Counted from the first letter of the stretch, positions 32,509-46,742 are shown. The stretch: 64,000 nt of DNA from Candidatus Binatia bacterium (GCA_046327955.1 JAXLXP010000007.1:193136-257135), one strand, 5' to 3'. Numbers and translations are program-made. Notes: generated from the sequence alone by a model not told the origin.

Positions 32509-33684
32509 ATGCGCGCGCTCGACTCGCTGAACGTCCAGGGCAAGCGCGTCTTCATCCGGGCCGACCTGAACGTCCCGCTCGAGGGCGGGACGGTCGCGGA
32601 CGCGACCCGGATCGACGCGACACTGCCCACGCTGCGGTGGGTGCTGGACCACGGCGGCCGCCCGATTCTCGCCTCCCACCTCGGCCGCCCCAAGGGCACG
32701 CCCGATCCGAAGTACTCGCTCCGCCCGGTCGCGGCCTACCTCCAGCAGACGCTCGGCCGGCCCGTCCACCTCGCTTCCGACTGCGTCGGACCCGCCGCCG
32801 AGGCGACCGTCGCCGCCGCGACGCCGGGCGAGGTCGTGCTGCTCGAGAACCTCCGCTTCCATCCCGGCGAGGAGAAGAACGACCCCACCTTCGCCGCCCA
32901 GCTCGCCCGCCTCGCCGACGTCTACGTGAATGACGCCTTCGGCGCCGCGCACCGCGCGCACGCGTCGACGGCGGGGATGGTCGTCCACTTCGCCGAGCGC
33001 GCCGGGGGTCTGCTCCTCCACCGCGAGGTCGAGGTGCTCGGACGCCTGCTCGCCGGCGCCGAGAAGCCGTTCGTCGCGATCCTGGGTGGCGCCAAGGTCT
33101 CCGACAAGATCGCGGTGATCGACCACCTGCTCGATCGGGTGCAGGCGCTGCTGATCGGCGGCGCGATGGCGTACACGTTCCTCAAGGCGCAGGGAAAGCC
33201 GATCGGTCGCTCGCGGGTCGAGGAGGACCGCGTCGAGTTGGCGCGCACGGTGCTCGCCGACGCGGCCGCCAAGCGCGTCGCGCTGTTGCTGCCGGTCGAC
33301 CACCTCGCGGCCGACAAGCCGGAGGCCGGTGCGACGACCCGCATCGTCTCCGCCGACGCCTTCCCGGCCGACCTGCTCGGGGTCGACATCGGTCCAGCGA
33401 CGGCCGCCCGCTACGCGCAGGAGATCGAGACCGCGCGCACGGTGCTCTGGAACGGCCCGATGGGCATCTTCGAGATCGAGGCGTTCAGCCGCGGGACGAT
33501 GGCGATCGCCGAGGCGCTCACGCGCTGCAAGGGCACGACGGTCGTCGGCGGCGGCGACTCGGTCGCCGCGCTCGAGAAGTCGGGGAAGACGAACGCCGTG
33601 ACGCACGTCTCCACGGGCGGCGGCGCATCGCTCGAGTTCCTGGAGGGCCGCACGCTGCCCGGCGTGGCGGCGTTGGAGGGCTGA
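32509..33684 (+). CDS. pgk: phosphoglycerate kinase
   Basis: KRVFIRADLNVPL...ASHLGRPKG... Confidence 0.9.
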   Translation: MRALDSLNVQGKRVFIRADLNVPLEGGTVADATRIDATLPTLRWVLDHGGRPILASHLGRPKGTPDPKYSLRPVAAYLQQTLGRPVHLASDCVGPAAEATVAAATPGEVVLLENLRFHPGEEKNDPTFAAQLARLADVYVNDAFGAAHRAHASTAGMVVHFAERAGGLLLHREVEVLGRLLAGAEKPFVAILGGAKVSDKIAVIDHLLDRVQALLIGGAMAYTFLKAQGKPIGRSRVEEDRVELARTVLADAAAKRVALLLPVDHLAADKPEAGATTRIVSADAFPADLLGVDIGPATAARYAQEIETARTVLWNGPMGIFEIEAFSRGTMAIAEALTRCKGTTVVGGGDSVAALEKSGKTNAVTHVSTGGGASLEFLEGRTLPGVAALEG

Positions 33685-33689
33685 TATCC

Positions 33690-34448
33690 GTGAGTCGCGT
33701 CCCACTACTGGCCGGCAACTGGAAGATGCACTGCACCCGCGCCGAAGCGACGGCCCTCGCCCGCGCGCTCGCCGAACGCGTCGGCCGGGTGACCGGGCGC
33801 GAGGTGCTCGTCGCCCCGCCGTTCACCGCGCTCGAGGCCGTGGCCGCTGCGATCGCGGGCACCGCCATCCGCCTGGCGGCGCAGAACGTCCACTGGGAGG
33901 CCAAGGGAGCCTTCACCGGCGAGATCTCGACCGCGATGCTGCGGGACGTGGGCTGCACGCACGTCATCATCGGGCACTCGGAGCGCCGGCAGTACTTCGG
34001 CGAGACCGACGAGACCGTGGCCAAGCGCGTCGGCGCGGCGCTGGCCGCCGGGCTCACCCCGATCGTGTGCGTCGGCGAGACCTTGGCCGAGCGCGAGGCG
34101 GGCGCGACCGCCGCCGTGATCCAGCGCCAGATCGCGGGCGGCCTGGCCGGGCGGTCGGCGGCCGACCTCGACCGCTGCGTCGTGGCCTACGAGCCGGTGT
34201 GGGCAATCGGCACCGGCAGAACCGCCACGCCCGCGCAGGCGCAGGAGGTCCACGCCGCGATCCGAGCGCAGCTCGCCGGACTCGGCGGCGCCGCGCTTGC
34301 GACGCGGGTCCGCATCCTCTACGGAGGAAGCGTGAAGGCGGACAACGTCGACACGCTGATGCGCGAGCCCGACATCGACGGCGCGCTCGTGGGCGGCGCA
34401 AGTCTCGACGTCGCGGCCTTCGCGCGCATCGTCGGGTTCGAGGGGTGA
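33690..34448 (+). CDS. tpiA: triose-phosphate isomerase
   Basis: LLAGNWKMH...IGHSERR...AYEPVWAIGTG. GTG start. Confidence 0.9.
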   Translation: MSRVPLLAGNWKMHCTRAEATALARALAERVGRVTGREVLVAPPFTALEAVAAAIAGTAIRLAAQNVHWEAKGAFTGEISTAMLRDVGCTHVIIGHSERRQYFGETDETVAKRVGAALAAGLTPIVCVGETLAEREAGATAAVIQRQIAGGLAGRSAADLDRCVVAYEPVWAIGTGRTATPAQAQEVHAAIRAQLAGLGGAALATRVRILYGGSVKADNVDTLMREPDIDGALVGGASLDVAAFARIVGFEG

Positions 34449-34455
34449 TCCCATC

Positions 34456-34818
34456 ATGTTGATGACGCTGGTGACGTACGTCGTGCCCGTGATCCACGTG
34501 GCCTCGTGTCTCTTCCTGATCGGGGTCGTGCTGTTGCAGACCGGCAAGGGGGCGGACGTGGGGGCCGTGTTCGGCGGTGGCAGCCAGACGCTGTTCGGCT
34601 CGGGCGGCGCGGGCAACTTCCTCACCAAGCTCACCACCGGCACCGCGATCGCGTTCATGGTGACGTCGCTGCTGCTCACCTGGGGCCAGAGCCACTCGAA
34701 CACGTCGCGCCTGCTCGAGAAGCTCCCGGCGGCGACGGAGTCCGCGCCGGCAGCGAGCGCACCGCAGGACACGGCACCGGCCAACGACAAGCCGGTCGAT
34801 GCCCCGGCAACCGAGTGA
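34456..34818 (+). CDS. secG: preprotein translocase subunit SecG
   Basis: Two TM segments, ...LQTGKGADVGAVFGGGSQTLFGSGGAGNFLTK. Confidence 0.85.
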   Translation: MLMTLVTYVVPVIHVASCLFLIGVVLLQTGKGADVGAVFGGGSQTLFGSGGAGNFLTKLTTGTAIAFMVTSLLLTWGQSHSNTSRLLEKLPAATESAPAASAPQDTAPANDKPVDAPATE

Positions 34819-34879
34819 ATCGGCGCGCTGCGCTCGACAGCGGTCGTCCCCTCTGTTAGGAAATCCCGCTCCACCCCCT

Positions 34880-34964
34880 GCGAGGATGGCGGAACTGGCA
34901 GACGCGCTAGTTTGAGGGGCTAGTGGGCTAATAACCCGTGGGGGTTCAAGTCCCCCTCCTCGCA
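34880..34964 (+). tRNA. tRNA-Leu (anticodon GAG)
   Basis: GCGAGGA...GGCGGAACTGGCAGACGC...CTAGT-TTGAGGG-GCTAG...long variable arm...GGGGGTTCAAGTCCCCC...TCCTCGCA, 85 nt. It closely resembles enterobacterial tRNA-Leu. Confidence 0.85.
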
Positions 34965-35789
34965 TTTCGCAGCCCTTGCGTTTCCGCGTACTTGCGATGC
35001 CCTTGTCCCTCCCCCTCGGCGAGGGAGGGACAATTTGCCTGCTGTCCCGCTCGCGAACAGGGCCGGTTCCAGCTTTGCGAAGCGACGTAGCTCGCTCTCA
35101 CCTTCGGTTGGTAGCCACCGACCGTAGTGCCTTCGCAGCGTCGCGTAGCTGACGCCGGTCTGCGTCTCCAACCATGCGATCTTGACGCCGAGGGAGAGCG
35201 CCGTCGAGACGAACGTGTCCTTGGTGCAGTAGATGCCACGGACCCGGACGCCGAGCACGCGCAGGCAAGCGTACCAGTAGCGCGATGCGAACGCCTTTGG
35301 CTCGATTGGCTGCCCCTCGGTCGTCGTGAAGACGGGCGTGTTGGGTGCCACCCGAAGAGGTTGGATCGCGTGGAGCACGCGCACGCTTTCAGGGAACAGC
35401 TCGACCCAGCGATCCGCGCTCGCGGTCTTCGGCGCGCCGTACTCGTAGAGGTGCCGGCTCCGCTGGACGTGCAGGCGAGGGCCGTCGAAGTCCACGTCGC
35501 CCCACTGCAAGCCAGCCGCTTCGCTCGGGCGCATCCCGGTCCAGAAAAGAAGATGCACAAGGGCGTGGTACGGCAGGTGCGGTCGCATGCGGACCGACTC
35601 GGCGCCCCCGCGTCCGACGTGGAAGCCGAAGCGCTTGCGCTCGAACCAACCGAGGATGCGCTGGCGCTCCTGCGGCGTGAATGGGTCCGGACCTGGCGGG
35701 GTCCACTTCGGCCACTTCAACCGGCGCGGGAAAGGATCGACGAGCAACACGCGGTCGTCAAGTGCCTGGGCGATCACGGCGCCGAGCGT
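34920..35789 (-). pseudogene. int: tyrosine integrase, C-terminal (catalytic) fragment, disrupted by an IS256-family insertion
   Basis: ...TLGAVIAQALDDRVLLV...TGMRPSEAAGL...LRRHYGRW. The reading frame rejoins the N-terminal fragment across the 8-bp target duplication. The 3' end overlaps the tRNA-Leu 3' end on the opposite strand. Confidence 0.7.
34942..34968. repeat. attL: 27-bp direct repeat (tRNA-Leu 3' end) GGGTTCAAGTCCCCCTCCTCGCATTTC
   Basis: Identical copy at 46716-46742. Confidence 0.8.
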
Positions 35790-37227
35790 GGGGATGTCCC
35801 GGAATCTGCTGAACGGCTGACCTGAAACCAGAGAGAGCGGCGGCTCCTTTCCCCGTCCTGTAAAGGACGGGTCACCACAACCAAGGGAAAGGAAGCCGCC
35901 ATGAAGAGAAGTCGCACAGGATCGTCCGCAGAGAAAGCCCCCGCCGCCCCGCCGGCCGTGAGCGTGCAGGTGCCGCTGCCGCTGATCGACGTGCTCGCTG
36001 ACATGAAGACGTCGTTCTTCGGTCTCTGCCTGACCGCGGGCCAGCAGGTCTTCCAGGCGATGATGGAACAGGACCGAGAGCAACTCTGCGGGCCGAAGAA
36101 TCTCCCGAATCCCGATCGGCGCGCCATCCGAGGGGGCAGTGCACCGAGTGAGGTCGTGCTCGGGGCGGCGCATCTCGATGCCCCGGCTTCGAGCGCGCAG
36201 TACAGACGGCAAGGAGCTCCACTTGCCGAGCTTCAGCTACGCCAGCGCCCACGACCCACTCGACGCCTACACGCTCGAACAGATGGCCATTGGCGTCGCC
36301 ACGCGGAAATATCGTCGCACGCTCGATCCGCTGCCGGGCCACGTGACCGAGCGAGCGAGCTCGAAGAGCGCCGTGTCCCGTCGCTTCGTCGCTCTCACCA
36401 GCCACAAGCTCACGACGTGGATGGCGGCGCCCCTCGATGGCCTGGACATCCGCGTCCTCTTCATCGACGGACTCCATTTCCGGGATCACGTGATTCTCCT
36501 GGTCCTGGGCCTCGATTCGCACGGGGTGAAGCATGTGCTCGGCCTGCGGGAGGGACGACGGAGAACGCGACAGTGTGGGGATTGCTCGCCGATCTGCGGC
36601 AGAGAGGTCTCGATCTCGACCGCCCGGTGCTGTTCGTCATCGACGGCGGGACGGGACTTCGGAAAGCGATCGAGACTCGTGCGGGGACGCGGCCCTCGTC
36701 CATCGCTGCCACGTCCACAAGAGACGGAATGTCTTGAGCATCTGCCCGAAGCCATGCGGCCTCGGGTGAAGAAGGCGATCAACGAAGCGCACGGCCTGGC
36801 CGATGCCGATCTCGCGCGGCGGCGTCTCGAGCAACTCGCTGCCGGTCTCCACCGCACGCACCCTGGAGCTGCCGCTTCCCCTTCGAGAAGGACTCGACGA
36901 GACGCTGACCCTGCAACAGCTCGGCGTCTCCAGCGCCCTCTACCGCACACTGCGCTCGACGAACGCGATCGAGAACCTCAACGGCCTCGTCGGGCACTTC
37001 GTCCGCAACGTGCGACGATGGCGAGACGGCCACATGCTGGTCCGTTGGATCGCTGCGGGGCTCGAAGAGGCACGTCGAAGCTTCCGTCGCGTCCGTGGCT
37101 ACACGGACATTCCGAAGCTGATCGCCGCACTCGATCGCCGAACTCTGGACACGAAGAAGGAGGTCGCGTAGACGCCCGTCAACCGAGCCGCCGCTCTCGA
37201 CCGTTCAACAGAGAACGGGACGACCCC
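35790..37227. mobile_element. IS256-family insertion sequence (1438 bp) with ~27-bp terminal IRs (GGGGaTGTCCCGgaatCTGcTGAACGG) and 8-bp TSD CCGAGCGT
   Basis: TSD copies at 35782-35789 and 37228-37235. Mutator-type transposase homology spans the interior. Confidence 0.7.
35901..37171 (+). pseudogene. IS256-family (mutator-type) transposase, interrupted by at least 5 frameshifts
   Basis: Homologous segments lie in four frames: ...LCGPKN...SEVVLG | GRRISMPRLRARSTDGKELHLPSFS...LFIDGLHF...GLDSHGVKHVLGL | TTENATVWGLL...FVIDGGTGLRKAI | VHKRRNVL | LPEAMRPRVKKAI... | ...STNAIENLNGLVGHFVRNVRRWRDG. One shift maps to a G4 homopolymer. Confidence 0.7.
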
Positions 37228-37721
37228 CCGAGCGTGCCGCTGATGATGTTGCGGACGTACTTCACGGACCGCCCGCGAGCGAACAGCTCGGCTTGCAAAC
37301 CGCGGATGATCGCGGGCGTCAGGTCGGTCAGAGAGACGTGACCGACCAGCCTGGCGATGATCTTGCCGTGCCGCACGTAATCGCGCGCCTGCGCCTTCCG
37401 CACCTGCGGGGGACGGTTGTAGGGCAAGAACGACTCGCGGAGGTACTCCGCAAGCGTCGGCCCGCGGGACATCGCCTGGTCCGGTTCTCGCTCGGGGCGT
37501 GCGAAGTAGGACCGGAGTGTCGAGATGGGATCACGCCCCTTCTTGAGCACCACACCGACCGTCGAGCAGAGCGGCGCGAGACGGGCTCGATTCTCAGCAG
37601 TGTCGTCGAGTCCCGTCGAATACGCGACGTGCCGCACGCGGCCGTCCGTCACAGCGACTCGGAAGCGGAGACGCAGGCGGCCCTTGTCCGCGTCAACCGA
37701 GCAACCGGCGTAGACCTTCAT
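37228..37721 (-). pseudogene. int: tyrosine integrase, N-terminal fragment (arm-binding/SAM-like domains), separated from its C-terminal part by the IS256 element
   Basis: MKVYAGCSVDADKGRLRLRFRVAVTDGRVRHVAYSTGL...VKYVRNIISGTL then runs into the IS IR. Confidence 0.7.
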
Positions 37722-38295
37722 GCGCTCGCTCGATGTTCAGCACGGGGTGCGACACTCGCGCGTCTACCATGGCAGCCAGCTCGCCGGCCACTCCGCCCTC
37801 GATCAGCTCGACGATAGCGGCCCACTTGAGCAGGACGCTTCCACCCCGCCCCGTCGGTTGGAACCAGTGGACACCGTGTCGGAGCACGCCGCGGCGCTGC
37901 ATGCGCCGGATCGCCTGAACGCTCCACGGGGTGAGCTGGGCGAGCTGGTCGGCCGACAAGTATGGCGGAATGGTCACCGCTGGCCGGTGTGATAGCGCTC
38001 CTCGTTGAGCTTCAGGTACCGCGCTCGTCCACTTGGACGGTGCGGGCCCGGTTGGCGCGGATGGTCCGGCCGTCCCCGATCTCCTGCGGACGGGGAATCG
38101 GCGTCGCGTCGGCGCGTCGGTCTCTTCGCGAACCAAGTGCAACGGCGTGAGGATGATCTCTCGGCCGCACCCCGGGCACGCGAGCGGGCCCCAGCCTGAC
38201 GGAAGCGGCGTATCACACCGCCGACAGCGACGGCCGAGGAGGTGGTTCTCGACACGTCTCGGATTCGCCACCGTGAGGTCAGGGCGGTCGCTCAC
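37693..38295 (-). CDS. zinc-ribbon + C-terminal excisionase/MerR-like HTH domain protein
   Basis: CRRCDTPLPSGWGPLACPGCGR zinc ribbon; C-terminus ...LSADQLAQLTPWSVQAIRRMQRRGVLRHGVHWFQPTGRGGSVLLKW. The proposed GTG start 38295 overlaps the DUF3631 stop (GTGA). Confidence 0.55.
   Translation of the reverse strand: MSDRPDLTVANPRRVENHLLGRRCRRCDTPLPSGWGPLACPGCGREIILTPLHLVREETDAPTRRRFPVRRRSGTAGPSAPTGPAPSKWTSAVPEAQRGALSHRPAVTIPPYLSADQLAQLTPWSVQAIRRMQRRGVLRHGVHWFQPTGRGGSVLLKWAAIVELIEGGVAGELAAMVDARVSHPVLNIERAHEGLRRLLG
38130..38245. repeat. copy 1 of a ~115-bp diverged direct repeat encoding a Cys4 zinc-ribbon segment (copy 2 at 38308-38425)
   Basis: About 70% nt identity; encodes RCRRC..LPSGWGP..CP.CGR...TPL.LV.E on the minus strand in both copies. 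Confidence 0.6.
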
Positions 38296-39710
38296 GGCTC
38301 GCCCGCCTCCGTGACCAAGCGTAACGGCGTGAAGTGTCCGACGCGCCCGCATCGCGGGCAGCCGATGGGCCCCCAGCCGGAGGGGAGTCCCGCAGTGCAG
38401 CGCCGACACCGGTGCGGGCGACCTGGCGGCCGACCGGCGCCCTTGCTAACGGGCTTCTTCCGTAGGGGGGCGACGACGTGACGAGGTGACAAGCCTTGTG
38501 CCCCAATGCATTCGTCGCCGTTCGACGACGTGACGTCACTGCGCGCGTCACCTTGTCTATCAGCCCGGAAACCCGTGTCTCGCGCAGGTTGTCTCGTCGT
38601 CACGTCGTTGAGATAGCGGGCGAAGGCATCCGCGAAGTCTGTTCGCTCAAAACCTTTGCCGCGCCGGTGGCCGGCGCGGACAGTCTTCGAGACGATGCCG
38701 AACGGACGGAGGAGCTGCATGAGCTTGTAGCCTGGACCGCGGGCGTCCTTCGTTTCGAGCGCCCCTCCCCACCACTCTCCCCACGGCTCGCCCTCGCGCT
38801 CGACGAGCGCCGCGAGGAGTTCGACGGTGAGGAGCCGGGCCGAGCGCGACTCGGCGAAAACCTGGCTGATTGCCCGCAGGAGCTGAACACCGGCACTCTC
38901 GGTGTCCTGTTGCCCGCCGTGGAGTTCCACGGCGGCTCGTCGCGCCCGGGCTGGCCAGTCGCCGCCCGCGAGGTCCGCTATCGCAAGCAGAGGCTCCCAT
39001 CCCTCCGCCGCCCGATCGTCAAGTGCCGCGGGCGTGGTCGGCGTAGGCCCTCGGAGAGTCGGCGTCGCTTCGGCTCCCCAGGCTGCGACGGCCGCCCGCA
39101 GCGGCTCGGCTTCCGCCCTAAACGTGGCAAGGCGGAAGCGGGCCACGGTCTCGGCCTTCTTCTTCCGGCGGAGCGGAATCGTAGTGCCGCGATCCGTCAC
39201 CGTATCCGGAAGAGCGCCGATAGCTGCTATGATCTTCGCGCAGAAGACTTCGAAGTCCACGAGTGTTTGGGTCGAGCCTTGACAGCGCGATACGACCGCG
39301 CCACGCCGGTTGCCGGCGTTGAGAACCGCGCGGAGGCCCTCCGTACCTTGGTCGGCCTTCTTGCCAAAGATGGTGTCAACTTCGTCGAGCAAGAGCGTCG
39401 GCCGATCGCGCGCGATCTTGCGGAAGAGGACTGCCTCGCTCGGTCGAACGAGACGCCATGCCCGCGGGACGAGTCCCTCCAGCACTTCCAGCAGCCGGGT
39501 CTTGCCGCACCGCTTCTCGGGTGAGGTCACCACGAGGTACGGCGTCACGTCGAATGCCTCGATCGCGTGCGCGTGCGCGATCCAGAGCGCGATGGCGACG
39601 AGGGCTGGCTGTGGGATGATGACGTAGCGCGCGATGAGACACTCGACGTCGGCAAGGAGGTCCGCGAGGCCGCGCTGCTCTTCCGCAACCTGCTGCAGGT
39701 ACGTTCGCAT
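38292..39710 (-). CDS. DUF3631-family protein (primase-associated C-terminal domain, found in integrative/plasmid replication modules) with C-terminal zinc ribbon
   Basis: MRTYLQQVAEEQRGLADLLADVECLIARYVIIPQPALVAIALWIAHAHAIEAF...LLDEVDTIFGKK... Start ATG 39710 overlaps the upstream small-ORF stop (ATGA). Confidence 0.65.
   Translation of the reverse strand: MRTYLQQVAEEQRGLADLLADVECLIARYVIIPQPALVAIALWIAHAHAIEAFDVTPYLVVTSPEKRCGKTRLLEVLEGLVPRAWRLVRPSEAVLFRKIARDRPTLLLDEVDTIFGKKADQGTEGLRAVLNAGNRRGAVVSRCQGSTQTLVDFEVFCAKIIAAIGALPDTVTDRGTTIPLRRKKKAETVARFRLATFRAEAEPLRAAVAAWGAEATPTLRGPTPTTPAALDDRAAEGWEPLLAIADLAGGDWPARARRAAVELHGGQQDTESAGVQLLRAISQVFAESRSARLLTVELLAALVEREGEPWGEWWGGALETKDARGPGYKLMQLLRPFGIVSKTVRAGHRRGKGFERTDFADAFARYLNDVTTRQPARDTGFRADRQGDARSDVTSSNGDECIGAQGLSPRHVVAPLRKKPVSKGAGRPPGRPHRCRRCTAGLPSGWGPIGCPRCGRVGHFTPLRLVTEAGEP
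38308..38425. repeat. copy 2 of the zinc-ribbon-coding direct repeat (C-terminus of the DUF3631 protein)
   Basis: See 38130-38245. Confidence 0.6.
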
Positions 39711-39892
39711 CACCGGCCTCGCTGCGGGTCGACGGACGAGGCTAGAGCCGTCCGTGTTGCGGCTTCGGTCATCCTGCCCATCGCGGTGCGAGAGTCGGCG
39801 GATGGCCGCCGCCATACATCTTCGAGGAAGGCGGCGAGCGCCCCTGACTCGTCCCCGCGCATGACGACTCGGCCGAGCGCGCGTCTGCTCAC
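39710..39892 (-). CDS. hypothetical small protein (60 aa), translationally coupled on both sides
   Basis: GTG start overlaps the upstream stop (GTGA); its stop overlaps the DUF3631 ATG (ATGA). Confidence 0.35.
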   Translation of the reverse strand: MSRRALGRVVMRGDESGALAAFLEDVWRRPSADSRTAMGRMTEAATRTALASSVDPQRGR

Positions 39893-40215
39893 TCTCGTGC
39901 CCCCCGGAGCCCGACAAACACAGCGACGTCGGCCTCGTCCAGCCGAACAGCGCGCAGTTGAACCCGGCCGGTGCTTGCGAGATCGTTGAGCGCCCGATTA
40001 ACCGCCGCGCGCGTCCACCGGCGGCGCCACGGGGGTACGGAATCGATGAGGGTCGAGTAAAGACGGCAGAGGGAAACCCGCTTGCCACCGAAGCTCCCAA
40101 GAACCGCATATAGGCTGTCAGCGAGGACGGCGCGCACGGGCGAGAGGGTTTGCCGTCGTCGCGGCGTGCGTGCCGGGCTCTTCCCGCTGCGCCGGTGGGG
40201 CGATATGGTCCGCAT
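39889..40215 (-). CDS. hypothetical protein (108 aa; C-terminal region resembles a winged-helix DNA-binding fold)
   Basis: ORF fitting the operon; no confident domain. Confidence 0.4.
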   Translation of the reverse strand: MRTISPHRRSGKSPARTPRRRQTLSPVRAVLADSLYAVLGSFGGKRVSLCRLYSTLIDSVPPWRRRWTRAAVNRALNDLASTGRVQLRAVRLDEADVAVFVGLRGARE

Positions 40216-40280
40216 CGGATCGTCGACCGCGAGCGCCGTGGCCTGCGAGGTAGGCTCCCCGGGCTACGGCGTCCGCGATC

Positions 40281-40469
40281 TTAGCGGGTGGGCTTGGTTT
40301 CCTCGCCCTGCGTGGCGATCCAGCGGCGGAGCGCCTCAGCTGGCACACGCACCGATCCCCTCAGCCGCACGCTGGGCAGGTCCCCGGCGGCGAGGAGGTC
40401 GTAGACCGTGGATCTTCCAAGACCCAGCAGCTCGGCGACCTCAGGCGGGCGGAGCAGAAGCTTTTCCAT
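40281..40469 (-). CDS. xis: excisionase/AlpA-like helix-turn-helix DNA-binding protein (62 aa)
   Basis: MEKLLLRPPEVAELLGLGRSTVYDLLAAGDLPSVRLRGSVRVPAEALRRWI. SD GGAGG. Confidence 0.65.
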   Translation of the reverse strand: MEKLLLRPPEVAELLGLGRSTVYDLLAAGDLPSVRLRGSVRVPAEALRRWIATQGEETKPTR

Positions 40470-40637
40470 ATCCCCTCCTTCCTTCGAGAGTCTCGTCCCC
40501 TCGGTCTTCTGAGGACTAATCGGCCCCCCTCGTAGCGCAGGGACGCAGCTTAGTCCCTCGGTCGACACCTCAAAACCGGCCAATGGTCGACGGGTCAAAC
40601 CCGGCCAATGGCGACGGCGCGGATGTCATGATCGCTC

Positions 40638-41397
40638 TTACTGCGTAGCGCCCTCCGCGGGCAAGGCATGGTGGCGCATCCGCCAGCTGCGCGGGCCGCA
40701 CTTGAGGACGTGGGCGTGGTGGAGGAGCCGATCGAGGAGCGCCGTCACGGCGGCGGTATCGCCGAGGAGCTTGCCCCAATCGTCGACCGGGCGGTTGGAG
40801 GTGAGGAGCGTGCTGGCCCGCTCGTAGCGGCGCATGACGAGCTCGAGGAGGTCTTCGGCGGCGGTGGCCGGGAGCTTCCGCATGCCGAGGTCGTCGATGA
40901 TGAGGAGTGGGACGGTGGCGAGCTCGGTCATCTTCGCGCGGCGGGTGCCGTCGACGCTGGCCTCGGCGAGCTCGTCGAGGAGGCCGTGGGCCTCGGTGTA
41001 GCGGACGCGGTAGCCCTGCTGGATGGCGGCATGGCCGATCGCCTGCGCGAGATGGCTCTTGCCGGTGCCGGGTGGGCCGAGGAAGAGCGCGTCTTCGCGC
41101 TGGGCGATGAAGCGGCCGGTCGCGAAGCTCGAAGACGAGCGTCCGGTGGAGCTTCTTGTTGAAGTCGAAATCGAAGGTGTCGAGGGTCTTGTCGGGATCG
41201 CGGAAGCGCGCGTGCGTTCGGCGCCGGGCGAGGAGGCGATCTTGGCGCCGGACGAGCTCATCGCTGACGAGCGTGGCGACGAGATCGAGTGGCGCGAGGC
41301 GCTCGGCCTGCGCTTGGCGGAGCCGCGCTTCGAGGACGTCGGCCATCCCCGAGAGCCGGAGCTGGCGGAGGGCGCGATCGAGTTCGGGCAGCGTCAT
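40638..41397 (-). pseudogene. istB: IS21-family helper ATPase IstB, single +1 frameshift
   Basis: MTLPELDRALRQLRLSGM...KLHRTLVFEL | (shift) ATGRFIAQREDALFLGPPGTGKSHLAQAIG...LLDRLLHHAHVL. Confidence 0.7.
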
Positions 41398-43000
41398 TCG
41401 GGAGTCTCCTTCTCGGCGCGGCGATCGAGGAGATCGCGGTAGAGGGTGAGCTGACGGATGAGCGGATCGACCTGGGTGAGCGTGAGCGGGCCGGCGACGC
41501 GCCGCTCGAGATAGCGGCGCACGAAGCGATAGGTCGGGACGCCGAGGTCCCGTGCCGCGGCACACGCGGCCTCGACGGCGGGCACGCCGTGGTGCTTGGC
41601 GAGGGCGAGGACGCCGAGGATGCGGCGGACGCCGGCGGCGCCGTCCTGCTGATGGATCGTCGCGCAGAGCAGGCCGATCGCCCGCCCCGCGCCGGTCGCG
41701 CGCGCGAGGACGGCGAGGACATCGGGCGGCGTCCGCCGGGGGCGATCGGCGGCCGCAATGCGATGCTGGCCGCGCGCCTGCCAGCGATGCTCGCGCAGGA
41801 GCTGCCCCGTGCGCGGATCGAGGAGGCGCACGGTCTGGCCATCCCACTGCACCGGGGAGGCGCTGGCCGAGATAGCCCGGCGGGGCGCCGTAGTACGCGC
41901 CGTCGACCTCGACGCAGCCGTCGAGATGCACGGTCCGCGTCCCGTGCTGGTAGTAGCGAAACGGCGTGAGCGGCAGCGCTCGCAGCGCGGGCTGCTCCTC
42001 GGCAAACATCGCCGCCACTTGCCGCTTCGTCGTGCCGTGGATGCGCGTGTCGGCCCAGCGCGTCTCCCAGTGATCGAGGTAGGCCTGGCCGTCCTCGAGG
42101 TTCTCGAAGCGCATGCCGCGCAGCGGCGTCTTCTGCGCATGGCCGACGCTCGCTTCGACCTTGCCCTTGCGATCGGGATGGCGGACCCGACACGGGAGGG
42201 CCACGGCGCCGTAGTGCGCGAGCACGTCGCGGTAGAGGGGATTGACCGTCGGGTCGTACACGTCCGCGGCGAGCACGCCCTCCTTGAGATTGTCGAGGAC
42301 GACCGTCTGCGGGACGCCGCCCAGCTGGCGAAACGCGCGCTCGTGAAGTTCGGCCCAGATCTGGCTGCTCGATTTCCAGGTGAGCAGCCGGACGGCCTTG
42401 CGGCTGTAGCCGAGCGTGAGGACGAAGAGCCGCGTGCGCCGGTATTTCCCGGTCTGCGGGTGGCGCACCATGGCGCCGTCGCCGTAGTCGACCTGGGCTT
42501 CCTCGCCGGGCGCCGTCCGGATCACGGGATGGGCATCGGGCGGCGCGACCGCGCGCAGCCGATGGACGAAGCGTTGGACGCTCTGCGTAGCCGGCGGCGA
42601 AGCCGTGGCGGTCGACCAGGTCCTGCCAGATCGCCATGGCGTTGCGGCCGCGGCCGAGCGCCTCCGTGATCAGCTCGCGGTACGGCTCGCACGTGCTCGC
42701 CGCCGGGCTCCGGCCGGGGCGCGGGGGGCACGGCGGCGGCCCCGAGTCGGTCGACACCCCATTGGCCGGTTTTGCCGTCGATCCCGGCTCCGAGTCGGTC
42801 GACACCTCGTTGGCCGGTTTTGATGGTGGTCGTCGGCCCCAGCTGCCCGGCGGCCGCACCGCGATCCCCGCGGCCTTCAAGTAGGCGCTCGCCGTCTCGC
42901 GGCGCACGCCCGTCTCGTCTTCGATGCGCCGCAGCGGCCAGCCGAGTCGGCCGAGGGCGAGGACCTGCTGTCGTTTCGTGTCGCTCAAGACGTTGGCCAT
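41394..43000 (-). pseudogene. istA: IS21-family transposase IstA, two +1 frameshifts
   Basis: MANVLSDTKRQQVLALGRLGW...DRHGFAAGYA | SVQRFVHRLR...IRTAPGEEAQVDYG...DDE region...GYLGQRLP | VQWDGQTVRLLDPRTGQLLREHRW... Confidence 0.7.
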
Positions 43001-43204
43001 CCTGACGAGGGGACCCCAGTCCCCATCGTCCGTTCAACGTCCGAGCCGTCCGCCTATTGGCCGGTTTTCAGGTGTCGATCATTGGCCGGTTTTGGGTGTC
43101 GACCGAGGCTTAGTCAAGCGGCGCTACTTACCTTGGTGAGACACGGCACCGCTTGCTCGCTCTCTATTCTACCCCTCGACAGGCACAGCCTGGAAGGCGT
43201 GCTC

Positions 43205-43720
43205 TCAGATTGGCAGAGAACGGGGACGACGGACCGCGACCCGCGCTTCAGGCGCATCCTCTTCGACCCCGTCAACATCGATCGTCCGTGGCCCCTCCGC
43301 CGGACGACGTTGCCTGGGCCACTCGCCCGTGGCGGCGAAATGATCCAACTCCTCACCAGTCCAGCCATCGAACACGCGATCGGCCTCGGCCTCGTCGCGC
43401 CCATACGCACCCGTAAGCCGGTACGCCATGTCGAGGGCTTTCAGGCCGAGAGCCTTCTCTCGCGGGTCAGCCGATCGGTACAGAGCCAGGAAGTGCGCGT
43501 GTATCCTGTGCAGCTTCCGGTCACTGATGCCCTCCCGGTCGAGCAGCTCGGTCACCGTGGCCTGCACTGTAGGGGATCGGAGGGTCTCGACCGCGATGGC
43601 ATGAGCGGTGTCCGGATCGCGGGTGTCATAGGCGACCAGCGCCGCGGCCGTCCCGTTACCGGTGGCGATGTAGTGCTTGAGGAAGCGGCGTTGCTTCAGG
43701 GTGAGGGAGCCTCGTCCCAT
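43205..43720 (-). CDS. phage terminase small subunit (Terminase_2-like), orphan
   Basis: LTLKQRRFLKHYIATGNGTAAALVAYDTRDPDTAHAIAVETLRSPTVQATVTELL. No large-subunit gene is adjacent. Confidence 0.6.
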   Translation of the reverse strand: MGRGSLTLKQRRFLKHYIATGNGTAAALVAYDTRDPDTAHAIAVETLRSPTVQATVTELLDREGISDRKLHRIHAHFLALYRSADPREKALGLKALDMAYRLTGAYGRDEAEADRVFDGWTGEELDHFAATGEWPRQRRPAEGPRTIDVDGVEEDAPEARVAVRRPRSLPI

Positions 43721-43795
43721 AGGGCAAGCCTACCACACTAGCGGAGCCGCATCCTAGCGCAGGCAGAATGAGTCGAGCGGGTGTGGCCTCCGGCC

Positions 43796-44776
43796 CTACC
43801 AGAACGGCGTAGCCCGCACAGGACGGCCGAACTGATCCATGCCGACCCCGAGCCCATACGCATTCGGCTTCACGGGCCCGATGATCGCCTCGCCCTGCTC
43901 CGTCCGCCACGAGAACGGACGGCCCGTTGCATCGGCGTTGACGCCGGGCCCGTAGGCGTCGGCTCGACCCGGGCCGAGCAAGCCGGATGTGGCGGCGCCT
44001 AGGTCAATTGCGCGCGCTCGTGGAGGTGATGCTCCGGGAGCCAGCCCCACGAGCGGGACCCAGCCCTTCGTAGGTCGCACCGCGGCGAAGCGTCCCAAGT
44101 AGGTTCCTTCGGGGGATTCCTGCCTGAACGTCCCTTCAAGGATGTCGCCCTGACGCGCCCCCTCGATTTCGACTGCGCCGAGAGTGTGTCCCCCGGATTC
44201 CAGGATGCCGCGGAGGGAGAGCCTGCCGCCGCGGTCGTCCCCAAGCAGCGAAGCGCTGCCATCGAAGCCGAGCGTCTGATTCCGGAAGATGACGCGCGCG
44301 GTGAGCCCGGCAGCTTGGCGCCGGAACATCATCCGCAAGACGCCGAGCTGACCCTCGGTCGGCAGCTCGTACGCGCCGACCCACTCGCCGTCGGCAACCA
44401 TGGCACCTTCTGCCACGGGCAGTCCGGTCGGAGCACGCTCGTCTCTATCCGCAGCCGGCGATCCAGTCGCGTCGCCTATGGGCATAAAGTCCTGTGCCGC
44501 TTCTCCCCGACCGCGGCAATACTCAGCCGGTACCCAACCCCGCGCCCGCATGCATCGTTCCCAACGTGCCCTTAGGCCGGCCTCTTGGGCGATGCACGCG
44601 AGCGCCCCAACGCAGAAAGACGCGCCGTTGCTCTCGCGCTCACACGTCACATACTCCGTGAAGAAATCTCGCTCAGTGGCGCCAGCGCGCGACCAGTGGA
44701 CGGCGCGGCGGCAGCACCCGCCGGGCGAGAGGAGGACCACCGCTGCCACTAGGACTGGGACCCGGAAGGTGCGCAT
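43796..44776 (-). CDS. hypothetical lipoprotein (signal MRTFRVPVLVAAVVLLSPGGC), Cys-rich N-region, Gly-rich C-terminal repeats
   Basis: ORF with lipobox. Repeats GPGVNADATGRPF / GPVKPNAYGLGVGMDQFGRPV. Confidence 0.5.
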   Translation of the reverse strand: MRTFRVPVLVAAVVLLSPGGCCRRAVHWSRAGATERDFFTEYVTCERESNGASFCVGALACIAQEAGLRARWERCMRARGWVPAEYCRGRGEAAQDFMPIGDATGSPAADRDERAPTGLPVAEGAMVADGEWVGAYELPTEGQLGVLRMMFRRQAAGLTARVIFRNQTLGFDGSASLLGDDRGGRLSLRGILESGGHTLGAVEIEGARQGDILEGTFRQESPEGTYLGRFAAVRPTKGWVPLVGLAPGASPPRARAIDLGAATSGLLGPGRADAYGPGVNADATGRPFSWRTEQGEAIIGPVKPNAYGLGVGMDQFGRPVRATPFW

Positions 44777-44867
44777 GAGGGCGCCATCTACCCTGGCGAC
44801 TTCGCTGCGGCTAGAGCCGCACTCGCCGGCGGCAAGAGCTGGTACCGCCACCGCCAATGGCTGCACG

Positions 44868-45155
44868 TTACGCATGCCCGAGGTCACGGAAGGAAACTGC
44901 CCGGCGCTGCAGACAGTCGACGTTGAACGCCTCGCCGAAGAAGCGCGACGCTCCCGTGCAGGCGCGGAGTGTCCCCCGCTTGCACGTCACGCTCCCCACG
45001 GCGAGGGAAGGGGAGAGAACCTTGAGGTTGGCCGTGAGGCGCACGAAGCCGCCTTGGACGCTAGCGATGGTCCCCGCGTACCTGAGGCGTGTGGCGTCAG
45101 CCCGAGCGGGGCCAAGTACAAGGATAGCAAGCACGATGACGGCAAGCATCCTCAT
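44868..45155 (-). CDS. hypothetical small secreted protein (95 aa)
   Basis: Signal peptide MRMLAVIVLAILVLGPARADA. Confidence 0.4.
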   Translation of the reverse strand: MRMLAVIVLAILVLGPARADATRLRYAGTIASVQGGFVRLTANLKVLSPSLAVGSVTCKRGTLRACTGASRFFGEAFNVDCLQRRAVSFRDLGHA

Positions 45156-45574
45156 GGACGCCGTATAACATTCGTGGCAATGTGGGCGCTATAGGGGTGG
45201 GCGGTCCCGCCAAGGGCTCTGAGCTTTCACCAAACCCTCTCGGGGGCGCCGAACCTATCCCAGGGCGAGCGCCCTGGGAGGAGGGTTGTCAAGCCGCCCG
45301 GGGCCCCAATGCGCCACTGTTTGCGGAAGTGAGCTAGCGAGCGTGCTAGCTAGCATGAGGTGCCACCTCCGACGGGGTCGGGCCTCCGGGGCCGGGTGGA
45401 TAGGGGCGCTTCGGGTCCAGCCACACGAGAGACCGAGCCCGCGGAGCGATCGACCGCCCCCCCGGCTGGCGGCCGTAGCTTGCTGAAACGCCTGGCGATA
45501 GGAGCCAGTTGACGGGGTCGGTTCTGAGGGGCTAACGTGCCTATGAGAACAGAGGTTCTCGAAGGAGCATTGCA

Positions 45575-46546
45575 ATGGGCGACGCCCCGACAAGCCTGGT
45601 ACCGAATGCGGCCGGTGACCTGGTCCACCCCGAGACCCTTCCCCCGGACCGTAACCCGGCCCGAGTCTACCTGACCCGGCTCGGGCAGGGGTCCCGGCGA
45701 ACGATGGCGGCGGCCCTCGACACGGTGGCCGGGCTCGTCACGGGCGGGGCCTGTGACGCCGATAGCCTCGCCTGGGCCCGTCTCCGCTACCAGCACACTC
45801 AGGCGGTCCTGGCGGCGCTCCGGGGCCGCTACAAGCCCGCGACGGCGAACAAGCACCTGGCGGCCCTCCGCGGGGTCCTCAAGGAGTGCTGGCGGCTCGG
45901 GCTCATGGCGGCCGACGACTACCAGCGGGCGACCGACCTGCAGCGGGTGAAGGCGACGACGCTCCCCCGGGGCCGCGCCCTCATGCGGCGTGAGCTGCGC
46001 GCCCTCTTCCGCGTGTGCCGAGCGGACACCCGGCCGAGCGGCGCCCGCGATGCGGCGCTCCTGGCCGTCGTCTACGGCGCCGGGCTCCGCCGCAGCGAGG
46101 TGGTCGCCCTCGACATGGCCGACTACGCGCCCGAGACCGGCGCGCTGACGATCCGGGCGGCGAAGGGCCGCAAGGACCGCCTCACCTACGCGACGAACGG
46201 GAGCCGGATCGCCCTCGACGGCTGGCTACGGGTGCGCGGGACGGAGCCCGGGCCGCTCTTCTGGCCGGTCGACCAGGCGGGGCGGATGACCGCGCGGCGC
46301 CTGACGGCGCAGAGCGTGCTAGAGCTGCTCGCGCGCCGAGCCCGGCGGGCGCGGGTCGCCCGGTTCAGTCCGCATGATCTCCGGCGCACGTTCATCAGCG
46401 ACTTGCTCGACGCGGGGGCGGATATCACGACCGTGGCGGGGCTCGCAGGGCACGCGAGCGTCACGACCACGGCGCGCTATGACCGGCGGGGTGAGGAGAC
46501 GAAGCGGCGGACGGCGGAGCTGCTCGTGGTGCCGTTCGAGGGCTAG
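45575..46546 (+). CDS. tyrosine-type site-specific recombinase/integrase (XerC/D-like, 323 aa)
   Basis: ...AVVYGAGLRRSE...RFSPHDLRRTFISDLLDAGADITTVAGLAGHASVTTTARYDRR carries the R, HxxR and Y motifs. The 3' end lies 170 bp from attR. Confidence 0.8.
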   Translation: MGDAPTSLVPNAAGDLVHPETLPPDRNPARVYLTRLGQGSRRTMAAALDTVAGLVTGGACDADSLAWARLRYQHTQAVLAALRGRYKPATANKHLAALRGVLKECWRLGLMAADDYQRATDLQRVKATTLPRGRALMRRELRALFRVCRADTRPSGARDAALLAVVYGAGLRRSEVVALDMADYAPETGALTIRAAKGRKDRLTYATNGSRIALDGWLRVRGTEPGPLFWPVDQAGRMTARRLTAQSVLELLARRARRARVARFSPHDLRRTFISDLLDAGADITTVAGLAGHASVTTTARYDRRGEETKRRTAELLVVPFEG

Positions 46547-46715
46547 GTGGGGAGAGCCCCCTACTGCGTGCGACACCTAGCTAGCTTGCACAGCTCCGAT
46601 TCCGCACAACCACCGGACCTTCGTGATTGTCCCTCAGAGGGACAATTCATGCCCACAGACGCCCTCTGACGCCTACCGCCGCCCGCGATTTCGTTGACTC
46701 TTCGGGCGACCTGCC

Positions 46716-46742
46716 GGGTTCAAGTCCCCCTCCTCGCATTTC
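46716..46742. repeat. attR: second copy of the 27-bp tRNA-Leu 3'-end repeat
   Basis: GGGTTCAAGTCCCCCTCCTCGCATTTC, identical to 34942-34968. Confidence 0.8.

Follow-up and report, generated by a model that had tools for sequence, protein, structure and literature searches.

A RepAM-type initiator with a putative intragenic origin in the replication–excision–integration arm of a decaying tRNA-Leu island

We analysed a stretch of 64,000 nucleotides from a Candidatus Binatia metagenome-assembled genome (MAG) (GCA_046327955.1, JAXLXP010000007.1:193136–257135; hereafter the window), in which a preliminary description had placed a four-gene operon around a DUF3631 protein at 37693–40215. The locus is best read as the replication–excision–integration arm of an 11.8-kb tRNA-Leu element, in which a RepAM-type helicase-initiator would use an origin located within its own gene; we put the probability of this reading at about three in four. 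What looked like a mysterious DUF operon becomes the recognizable rep–ori–xis–int arm of a decaying island, from which two probable non-genes are removed.

The DUF3631 gene (38292–39710, minus strand; 472 amino acids (aa) counted from the ATG at 39710) encodes a protein that matches PF12307 at 154.7 bits (cut-off 24; E = 4 × 10−45) over aa 180–366, with all 182 profile positions covered, so the original DUF3631 assignment stands. PF12307 is RepAM, which initiates replication of the actinomycete element pMEA300 (PMC3218068); in that element, orfA and repAM are co-transcribed, orfA is dispensable and xis lies directly downstream of repAM (PMC2440964). The protein in the window is a RepAM-type initiator and belongs to a family that is already known and experimentally studied. 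The module can no longer be called poorly characterized: RepAM was shown to bind repeats in the 3′ part of its own coding sequence (PMC2440964), and such repeats are present here.

DUF3631 had also been described as normally a C-terminal domain, which would make the standalone protein unusual. This view does not hold, as RepAM is itself a standalone initiator (PMC3218068, PMC2440964) and, among 74 non-redundant relatives, about one-third have almost no N-terminal extension. These extensions vary in length from none at all to over 300 aa and reach about 240 aa or more in about 40% of these relatives; the long ones are consistent with the primase fusions seen among homologues. More than 3,400 DUF3631 homologues were found, mostly in soil and sediment metagenomes, showing that replicons of the RepAM type abound well outside actinomycetes, too. 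Standalone proteins of 370–550 aa are numerous among these homologues, and others are fused to Prim-Pol, DUF3854/Toprim, zf-CHC2, DnaB_N or DnaJ domains, and primases (Prim-Pol, Toprim, DUF3854 or zf-CHC2) are either fused to RepAM relatives or precede them. The standalone form is common in the family, and the protein studied here is not unusual in that respect. A scan of genome contigs returned only two distant loci, and those RepAM relatives that carry annotation sit in conjugative actinomycete elements.

The conserved module is longer than PF12307, which spans just its back half; a Walker A/B ATPase core precedes the Pfam domain in the same protein. N-terminal helices (aa 1–48) are followed by a P-loop ATPase with an alpha/beta core (aa 55–180; Walker A GKT at 69–71, Walker B DE at 109–110), a helical domain (aa 194–288), a winged helix (aa 292–367), a disordered tail (aa 368–431) and a Cys4 ribbon (aa 434–469; 38304–38411, minus strand), the last read directly in the sequence as RCRRCTAGLPSGWGPIGCPRCGRVGHFTPLRLVTEA. 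In the Walker A motif (SPEKRCGKT) G69 and K70 are nearly invariant among relatives, and D109 and E110 of Walker B (LLLDEVD) are invariant, as are N131, G133, R174 and R182; the region around R136 is also conserved. The protein is full length and every conserved motif is intact.

An AlphaFold2 (AF2) model built on 67 homologues had a mean predicted local distance difference test (pLDDT) score of 81.5 and was confident over aa 10–366, exceeding 90 over most of that span; aa 370–431 were disordered and the ribbon was of low confidence. Foldseek comparison of the model with the PDB gave matches to MCM subunits (best E = 4.7 × 10−6) and to the NrS-1 helicase region (6lrb), ComM, BrxL, RuvB, SV40 large T antigen and the Rep protein of Staphylococcus aureus pathogenicity islands (SaPIs) with DNA (7pds; E about 2 × 10−4). 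Among viral models, it matched primase-helicases labelled Toprim, Prim-Pol, DUF927, DUF3987, VirE, SF3 or 'NrS-1-like helicase', down to E = 5.9 × 10−18. Pfam places RepAM in none of the SF3, D5 and MCM families, and we detected in the protein neither a domain of the HUH or catalytic-tyrosine kind nor any Rep-family match in Pfam. The model leads us to infer a ring-helicase-type ATPase whose winged helix would bind the origin, and not an HUH nuclease.

The putative origin (38478–38603) lies in the DNA coding for the disordered tail of RepAM. It contains six pentamer cores in 126 bp, three per orientation: GTGAC at plus-strand positions 38478, 38486 and 38530, and GTCAC at 38535, 38547 and 38599. 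The two sets meet at the palindrome GTGACGTCAC, and nowhere else in the window do such cores cluster as densely (six versus a mean of 0.37 per 170 bp). The 13-mer CGACGACGTGACG is found at 38471–38483 and 38523–38535 and, in reverse orientation with one mismatch, at 38598–38610; these three copies within 140 bp compare with two comparable matches in the rest of the 64 kb. Local GC content in the region drops to 0.55–0.65. The GTCACG hexamer was not enriched across the window, the signal being one of local clustering and of conservation between loci.

In an alignment of the region, the repeat sites lie at the same positions in eight relatives, and the cores change together within each locus. 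The core is GTCAC in the window and in three related loci (L003–L005), GTCGC in three others (L006–L008), GTCAG at most sites in L010 and GTGAC in L014, and the left-hand sites are always the reverse complement. Since the copies lie in different reading frames and orientations, with the same nucleotide change giving V to A, T to A or H to R, selection on the peptide can hardly account for the concerted change. At codon position 3, mean pairwise identity is 0.44–0.54 in the gene core, compared with 0.66–0.82 at positions 1 and 2. Only in the two repeat segments does it climb to 0.64–0.67, matching the other two positions, and it falls back to 0.44 between the segments. Residue differences in the winged helix between iteron classes were considered as further evidence and dropped, because the sequences form a single clade.

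The same arrangement recurs across the family. Of 63 non-redundant loci, 46 have a 7-mer that occurs four or more times within the 220 nt following residue 366, compared with 3 of 252 control windows taken from the same genes, and the repeats fit the pattern TGT-NN(N)-CG with a lineage-specific middle. A 13.5-kb Streptomyces element with the order Tra, Prim-Pol, DUF3631, HTH (helix-turn-helix), Int provided a positive control for the published feature: 11 copies of the 8-mer GTAGCGGA/TCCGCTAC span the 3′ end of its DUF3631 gene and the following spacer. Together, these sequence patterns point to the repeats as a putative RepAM-type origin inside its own gene. The fixed iteron position and the variable 2–3-nt core that changes in concert would permit a simple prediction of origin specificity and incompatibility groups from sequence only.

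We propose that RepAM is a replicative helicase that loads itself. The short iterons directly behind the winged-helix coding region, that is, the three GTGAC and three GTCAC cores that face each other in the disordered-tail coding DNA, would be recognized by the C-terminal winged helix of RepAM, and hexamers of the AAA+/SF3-like ATPase would assemble there and unwind the excised circle. The following Xis-like gene is coupled to RepAM by a GTGA overlap, and then to the integrase, so that replication and excision functions would be expressed together. Domain identity, the predicted fold, the co-varying repeats, synteny and the att sites come from the data; iteron binding, helicase activity, Xis function and co-expression are predictions built on them.

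Judged from its predicted fold, the locus would work most like the SaPI-type self-loading helicase replicons. SaPI origins comprise 6–12 penta- or hexanucleotide iterons just behind rep, in two opposed sets that are read by the winged helix of Rep (PMC9371898). RepAM would share with the SaPI Rep and PriRep helicases an ATPase ring-helicase core and a C-terminal winged helix, and the locus has the two opposed iteron sets and the int–xis–rep island setting of SaPI rep/ori. In contrast to SaPI, there is no detectable sequence similarity to Rep, the iterons lie inside the coding sequence rather than downstream of it, and a clear AT-rich centre and a cognate primase gene are absent. The best fold matches come from the helicase modules of phage and plasmid primase-helicases (NrS-1 6lrb; DUF927, DUF3987, VirE and D5-like SF3; MCM), which have the same N-terminal Prim-Pol, Toprim or zf-CHC2 fusions as many DUF3631 relatives; unlike these enzymes, RepAM here has no primase domain.

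Among the closest known systems are also the RepAM modules of pMEA300, pMEA100 and pSE211. The locus shows all RepAM-module features that we examined, namely the PF12307 domain in a standalone initiator, inverted sets of several short, identical repeats where rep ends at its 3′ side, and the order small upstream ORF (open reading frame), rep, xis, int beside a tRNA att site; relatives in both cases are often associated with Prim-Pol. Two features that define the integrative and conjugative elements of actinomycetes (AICEs), a Tra protein and an actinomycete host, are lacking: the host is a Candidatus Binatia MAG, to which exact-sequence look-ups assigned the flanking PGK and TIM proteins as well as RepAM, and there are no FtsK/SpoIIIE transfer, Prim-Pol, Kor or Nudix genes. 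The Streptomyces relative does carry Tra. The repeats also differ in number, with six pentamer cores or three 13-mers here versus 11 perfect 8-mers in the Streptomyces control, and RepAM here bears a Cys4 ribbon that is duplicated on the Xis-like protein. Three minor twists mark this locus: the Binatota host, the absence of a primase, and the ribbon carried by both helicase and Xis-like protein.

The fourth ORF (37693–38295, minus strand, GTG start) encodes this 200-aa Xis-like protein, which consists of an N-terminal Cys4 ribbon (aa 23–58; 38122–38229, minus strand), an R/P-rich linker and a C-terminal half with an Xis-like winged HTH and a conserved tail (aa ~110–200; 37696–37968, minus strand). 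Homologues (P0128 and P0129) were found only for the C-terminal half, from PPYLS to the end (...EGLRRLLG). The gene for P0128 directly precedes an integrase gene, with a 44-nt overlap (loci L083–L086), in elements whose replication protein is a DUF3854 primase-helicase and not a DUF3631 protein. A tblastx comparison showed the HTH part and the integrase N terminus to be collinear between the window and the P0128 locus L083. Because its homologues adjoin an integrase and this collinearity extends to the window, the C-terminal half belongs to the integrase module, and position and synteny make the 200-aa protein a probable recombination directionality factor.

The ribbon is not shared by P0128 or P0129. 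The ribbons at the C terminus of RepAM and the N terminus of the 200-aa protein, both of which the preliminary description had recognized, are identical at 23 of 36 residues, including all four cysteines. The offset between the two copies, 182 nt, makes up for the different frames of the ORFs, and the copies differ at 9, 9 and 19 sites in codon positions 1, 2 and 3, respectively; the ratio of nonsynonymous to synonymous divergence (dN/dS) is about 0.22, with dS about 1.3. These values indicate an old duplication in which both copies have been translated and kept under selection. Cys4 motifs turn up loosely around RepAM genes: the tails of 8 of 68 RepAM relatives have C-terminal CxxC..CxxC motifs, and 5 of 44 downstream ORFs carry a Cys4 motif, in most cases behind a TubC_N-like domain. 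Co-occurrence of DUF3631 with zinc-ribbon–HTH partners in other elements had been put forward as a check; such a partner proved not to be conserved beside DUF3631. Homologues exist for the HTH half alone and adjoin an integrase that follows a DUF3854 primase-helicase, and no other downstream ORF of the 44 examined combines a ribbon with an Xis-like domain. That helicase and Xis-like protein bear the same ribbon suggests that they may have a partner or DNA target in common.

Several observations weigh against the helicase-initiator reading. The TM-scores of the RepAM fold matches are modest (0.3–0.5), and neither the single sequence nor the 67-sequence profile gave a sequence match in the PDB. 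For the Xis-like protein, the excisionase-like HTH noted earlier is weakly detectable, with an HTH_17 (PF12728) match at E = 0.05 that falls under the cut-off (14.3 versus 27 bits), and hhalign of its C-terminal family against true HTH_17 neighbours was negative (probability 0.3). An origin-like AT-rich or iteron region had been raised as a possible feature nearby; the six cores and three 13-mers provide putative iterons, but there is no clear AT-rich centre between the opposed sets, where the palindrome lies and GC dips only to about 0.60. The repeats are fewer and less perfect than in many relatives, with the best 7-mer present three times in the window versus 5–9 times. As the element lacks a primase gene, the host or a helper would have to supply priming. 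The integrase is broken and insertion sequence (IS) elements have entered the island, so the module may no longer function.

The older literature, of 2006–2011, proposed a different mechanism for RepAM elements, rolling-circle replication, although of an atypical kind (PMC2440964, PMC3218068). RepAM would then be a rolling-circle initiator, and the inverted repeats would extrude a hairpin with a pC194-like site that is nicked to prime the leading strand. Reviews cite a hairpin and a CTTGAT-like sequence between the repeats, while calling the multiple binding sites, their 3′ location and the element sizes atypical (PMC2440964, PMC3218068). In the window, the left and right 13-mers do pair with each other in the single-stranded fold of minimum energy, and CTTGTC adjoins the right-hand repeats; however, the repeat region as single-stranded DNA folds no better than shuffled sequences (z = −0.97), and for this reason we claim no hairpin. 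The lack of a detectable HUH, catalytic-tyrosine or Rep-family domain, the predicted P-loop AAA+/SF3-like ATPase with its winged helix, and the frequent fusion or adjacency of relatives to primases, which rolling-circle replication does not need, make this mechanism very improbable for the locus. The predicted fold instead argues for SaPI- or MCM-type helicase-driven replication. A more serious competitor, which has a substantial though smaller share of our belief, is that the cluster is a non-functional remnant in which RepAM and the Xis-like gene are relics, the repeats are leftovers, the small ORFs are chance frames in GC-rich DNA and no four-gene operon exists. It draws on the integrase split by an IS256-like element with a frameshifted transposase, the IS21 element with a frameshifted istA directly upstream, the missing primase and transfer genes, the small ORFs without homologues or annotation, iterons that are fewer and more degenerate than those of relatives, and a weak codon-usage signal across both the RepAM tail and the N-terminal half of the 200-aa ORF. 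Against it stand a full-length RepAM in which all conserved motifs are intact, two zinc ribbons under purifying selection, att repeats that are both perfect over 27 bp and a second, intact integrase at the other end of the island. The remnant explanation concerns present activity and is compatible with our identification of the parts.

It is also conceivable, but unlikely, that the island is a phage satellite resembling phage-inducible chromosomal islands (PICIs), which a helper phage would induce, RepAM and the origin would amplify, and a TerS-like (small terminase-like) protein would direct into phage particles by redirected packaging. The inventory fits: besides int and xis there are an HTH_17/AlpA-like regulator, a small-terminase-like gene and rep, with its origin alongside; conjugation genes are absent, and SaPI Rep/ori is the closest mechanistic analogue of the replicon. 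On the other side, the TerS match is limited to the N-terminal HTH part, genes for capsid remodelling or other packaging functions were not recognized, no helper phage is known, the element is small at about 7.9 kb without its IS elements, and the annotated RepAM relatives sit in conjugative actinomycete elements. A broader and doubtful synthesis would make DUF3631/RepAM a large unrecognized family of self-loading helicase-initiators with origins dual-coded in their own disordered-tail segments and a lineage-specific iteron code, TGT-NN(N)-CG, co-evolving with the winged helix; the old, selected ribbon duplicate would physically link excision to replication initiation, and the element could be phage-satellite-like and make use of its TerS-like gene. 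The family-level points, the helicase fold and the co-varying iteron code, are more interesting than the locus itself and remain predictions.

Returning to the replication–excision–integration arm, we read its gene layout directly in the sequence, and all four minus-strand ORFs were present at the coordinates first given for them, with start/stop overlaps. The outer two overlaps, between orf108 (39889–40215; 108 aa, ATG start) and orf60 (39710–39892; 60 aa, GTG start) and between the DUF3631 ORF and the fourth ORF, are GTGA as reported; the middle one, between orf60 and the DUF3631 ORF, is a single base (TGATG) and not ATGA. The cluster extends beyond these ORFs. Downstream, the fourth ORF overlaps the integrase fragment (37179–37721) by 29 nt. 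Upstream, an HTH_17 gene (40281–40469, minus strand; 62 aa) with a strong AGGAGG ribosome-binding site lies 65 nt from orf108 and encodes an excisionase-family or AlpA-like DNA-binding protein (PF12728, E = 6 × 10−15; TIGR01764, E = 2 × 10−13; phrog_66; NCBI MFN8544621.1). In 12 related loci, comparable HTH_17 genes lie upstream of either a primase gene or the RepAM gene; the gene in the window is the probable first gene of the cluster, and its product is likely to act as a regulator if not simply as that first gene.

A 4-nt overlap between RepAM and the downstream gene was present in 15 of 44 relatives, and GTGA-type coupling of RepAM to the next gene is a family trait. The third-position GC content (GC3) of the four ORFs is 0.73–0.77 versus about 0.9 in the flanking host genes, which fits acquired DNA. 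Within the cluster we found neither a sigma-70-like promoter nor a convincing terminator, and none of the four proteins had a match in PHROGs, NCBIfam or PADLOC.

Of the four ORFs proposed to form an operon, only the RepAM gene and the 200-aa Xis-like ORF are supported as genes; orf108 and orf60 were not confirmed. As first described, the small ORFs have no recognizable domains. No homologue of orf108 was found among 5.8 billion clusters, and exhaustive scoring of 1.84 billion representatives gave none of orf60; exact look-ups of the ORFs with GTG starts, using M as the first residue, found nothing, and neither small ORF had a match in 86 related loci, so they are not conserved beside DUF3631 genes, an outcome that the preliminary description had itself named as refuting. 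NCBI annotates neither of them, as the consecutive accessions of the DUF3631 protein (MFN8544620) and the HTH_17 protein (MFN8544621) show. At the position of these ORFs, relatives have a primase gene or an N-terminal primase fusion. A decayed primase was considered for this region and rejected, as tblastx against related loci gave only scattered, non-collinear fragments that we read as GC-rich noise.

The two small ORFs differ in coding signal. By codon usage, the orf108 frame is the best of six (+14.0; next +3.4), and that of orf60 is only marginally the best (+3.7). A single-sequence AF2 model of orf108 was of low confidence (pLDDT 60), with an H-b-H-H-b-b topology, and its weak fold matches were all to winged-helix domains. 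We regard orf108 as a possible orphan accessory gene, which may encode a winged-helix protein and in position is comparable to the dispensable orfA of pMEA300. The orf60 frame is unsupported and is probably a 5′ leader or a start-site artefact. NCBI starts RepAM at 39815 (507 aa), overlapping most of orf60; we favour the ATG at 39710 because it has GAGG 8 nt upstream.

The island spans 34942–46742 (11.8 kb). It is bounded by a 27-bp direct repeat, of which one copy (attL, 34942–34968, plus strand) covers the 3′ end of tRNA-Leu(gag) (34879–34965) and the other (attR, 46716–46742, plus strand) reads GGGTTCAAGTCCCCCTCCTCGCATTTC. The two copies are perfect, none being expected by chance, and no third copy that would divide the island into two elements was found. 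Apart from the tRNA, no Rfam family was found. No primase gene and no FtsK/SpoIIIE-type transfer gene occurs among the ORFs between 34942 and 46742. The proposal that the locus forms the replication module of an island is borne out.

The integrase next to attL is a tyrosine integrase interrupted by an IS256/Mutator-family element (about 35784–37222), the transposase of which is itself split over three frames. The N-terminal part (37179–37721, minus strand; phrog_1, E = 1 × 10−5) is truncated by the insertion and collinear with the L083 integrase, and the C-terminal, catalytic part (34920–35783, minus strand; PF00589 match) ends inside the tRNA-Leu/attL region. The integrase frame resumes across the insertion, with the 'TLG' junction duplicated (...ISGTLG / ...PTLGAVIAQ). 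At the other end of the cluster, an IS21-family element (~40556–43140) lies directly upstream of the HTH_17 gene, where the promoter region of the cluster would be; it has an IstB gene (40638–41261; MFN8544622.1), a frameshifted istA and tandem 25-bp terminal repeats (40560–40609). With its integrase split, IS21 just upstream of the cluster, and neither primase nor transfer gene, the island is decaying.

Beyond IS21 lies the TerS-like gene (43205–43720, minus strand; 171 aa), named 'terminase small subunit' by NCBI, whose product matches Terminase_2 (E = 3.6 × 10−9) and phrog_51 (E = 2 × 10−10), the match being confined to the N-terminal HTH part. Two hypothetical ORFs follow (43796–45155, minus strand) that encode a protein of 363 aa and one of 95 aa whose N terminus is signal-peptide-like; they had no match in Pfam, PHROG or PADLOC and may be island cargo. 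A second tyrosine integrase (45575–46546, plus strand; PF00589, E = 1 × 10−23), apparently intact, reads outward at the attR end. A homologue with 62% identity to it lies ~2 kb upstream of the DUF3631 gene in a metagenome locus (L072).

Other RepAM relatives vary in their direct downstream neighbours, which include TubC_N-like, HTH_17, integrase, PC4-like and VRR-NUC proteins. In six loci (L003, L006, L012, L022, L045 and L082) a small TubC_N-like protein (PF18563, up to E = 6 × 10−14) directly follows the DUF3631 gene, often with a Cys4 ribbon behind its docking domain. The docking-like TubC_N motif also forms the N terminus of some RepAM proteins (P0003 and P0005), and its sharing suggests a modular protein–protein contact in these replication modules. 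In other DUF3631 proteins (P0013, P0014, P0017, P0018 and P0020; locus L012, 3971–5617), an N-terminal DnaJ (J) domain (PF00226) takes the place of the primase, a hint of chaperone recruitment during initiation. On the host side of attL, the plus strand at 32509–34965 carries pgk, tpiA, a small ORF (34456–34818) that we take to be probably secG, and the tRNA-Leu gene.

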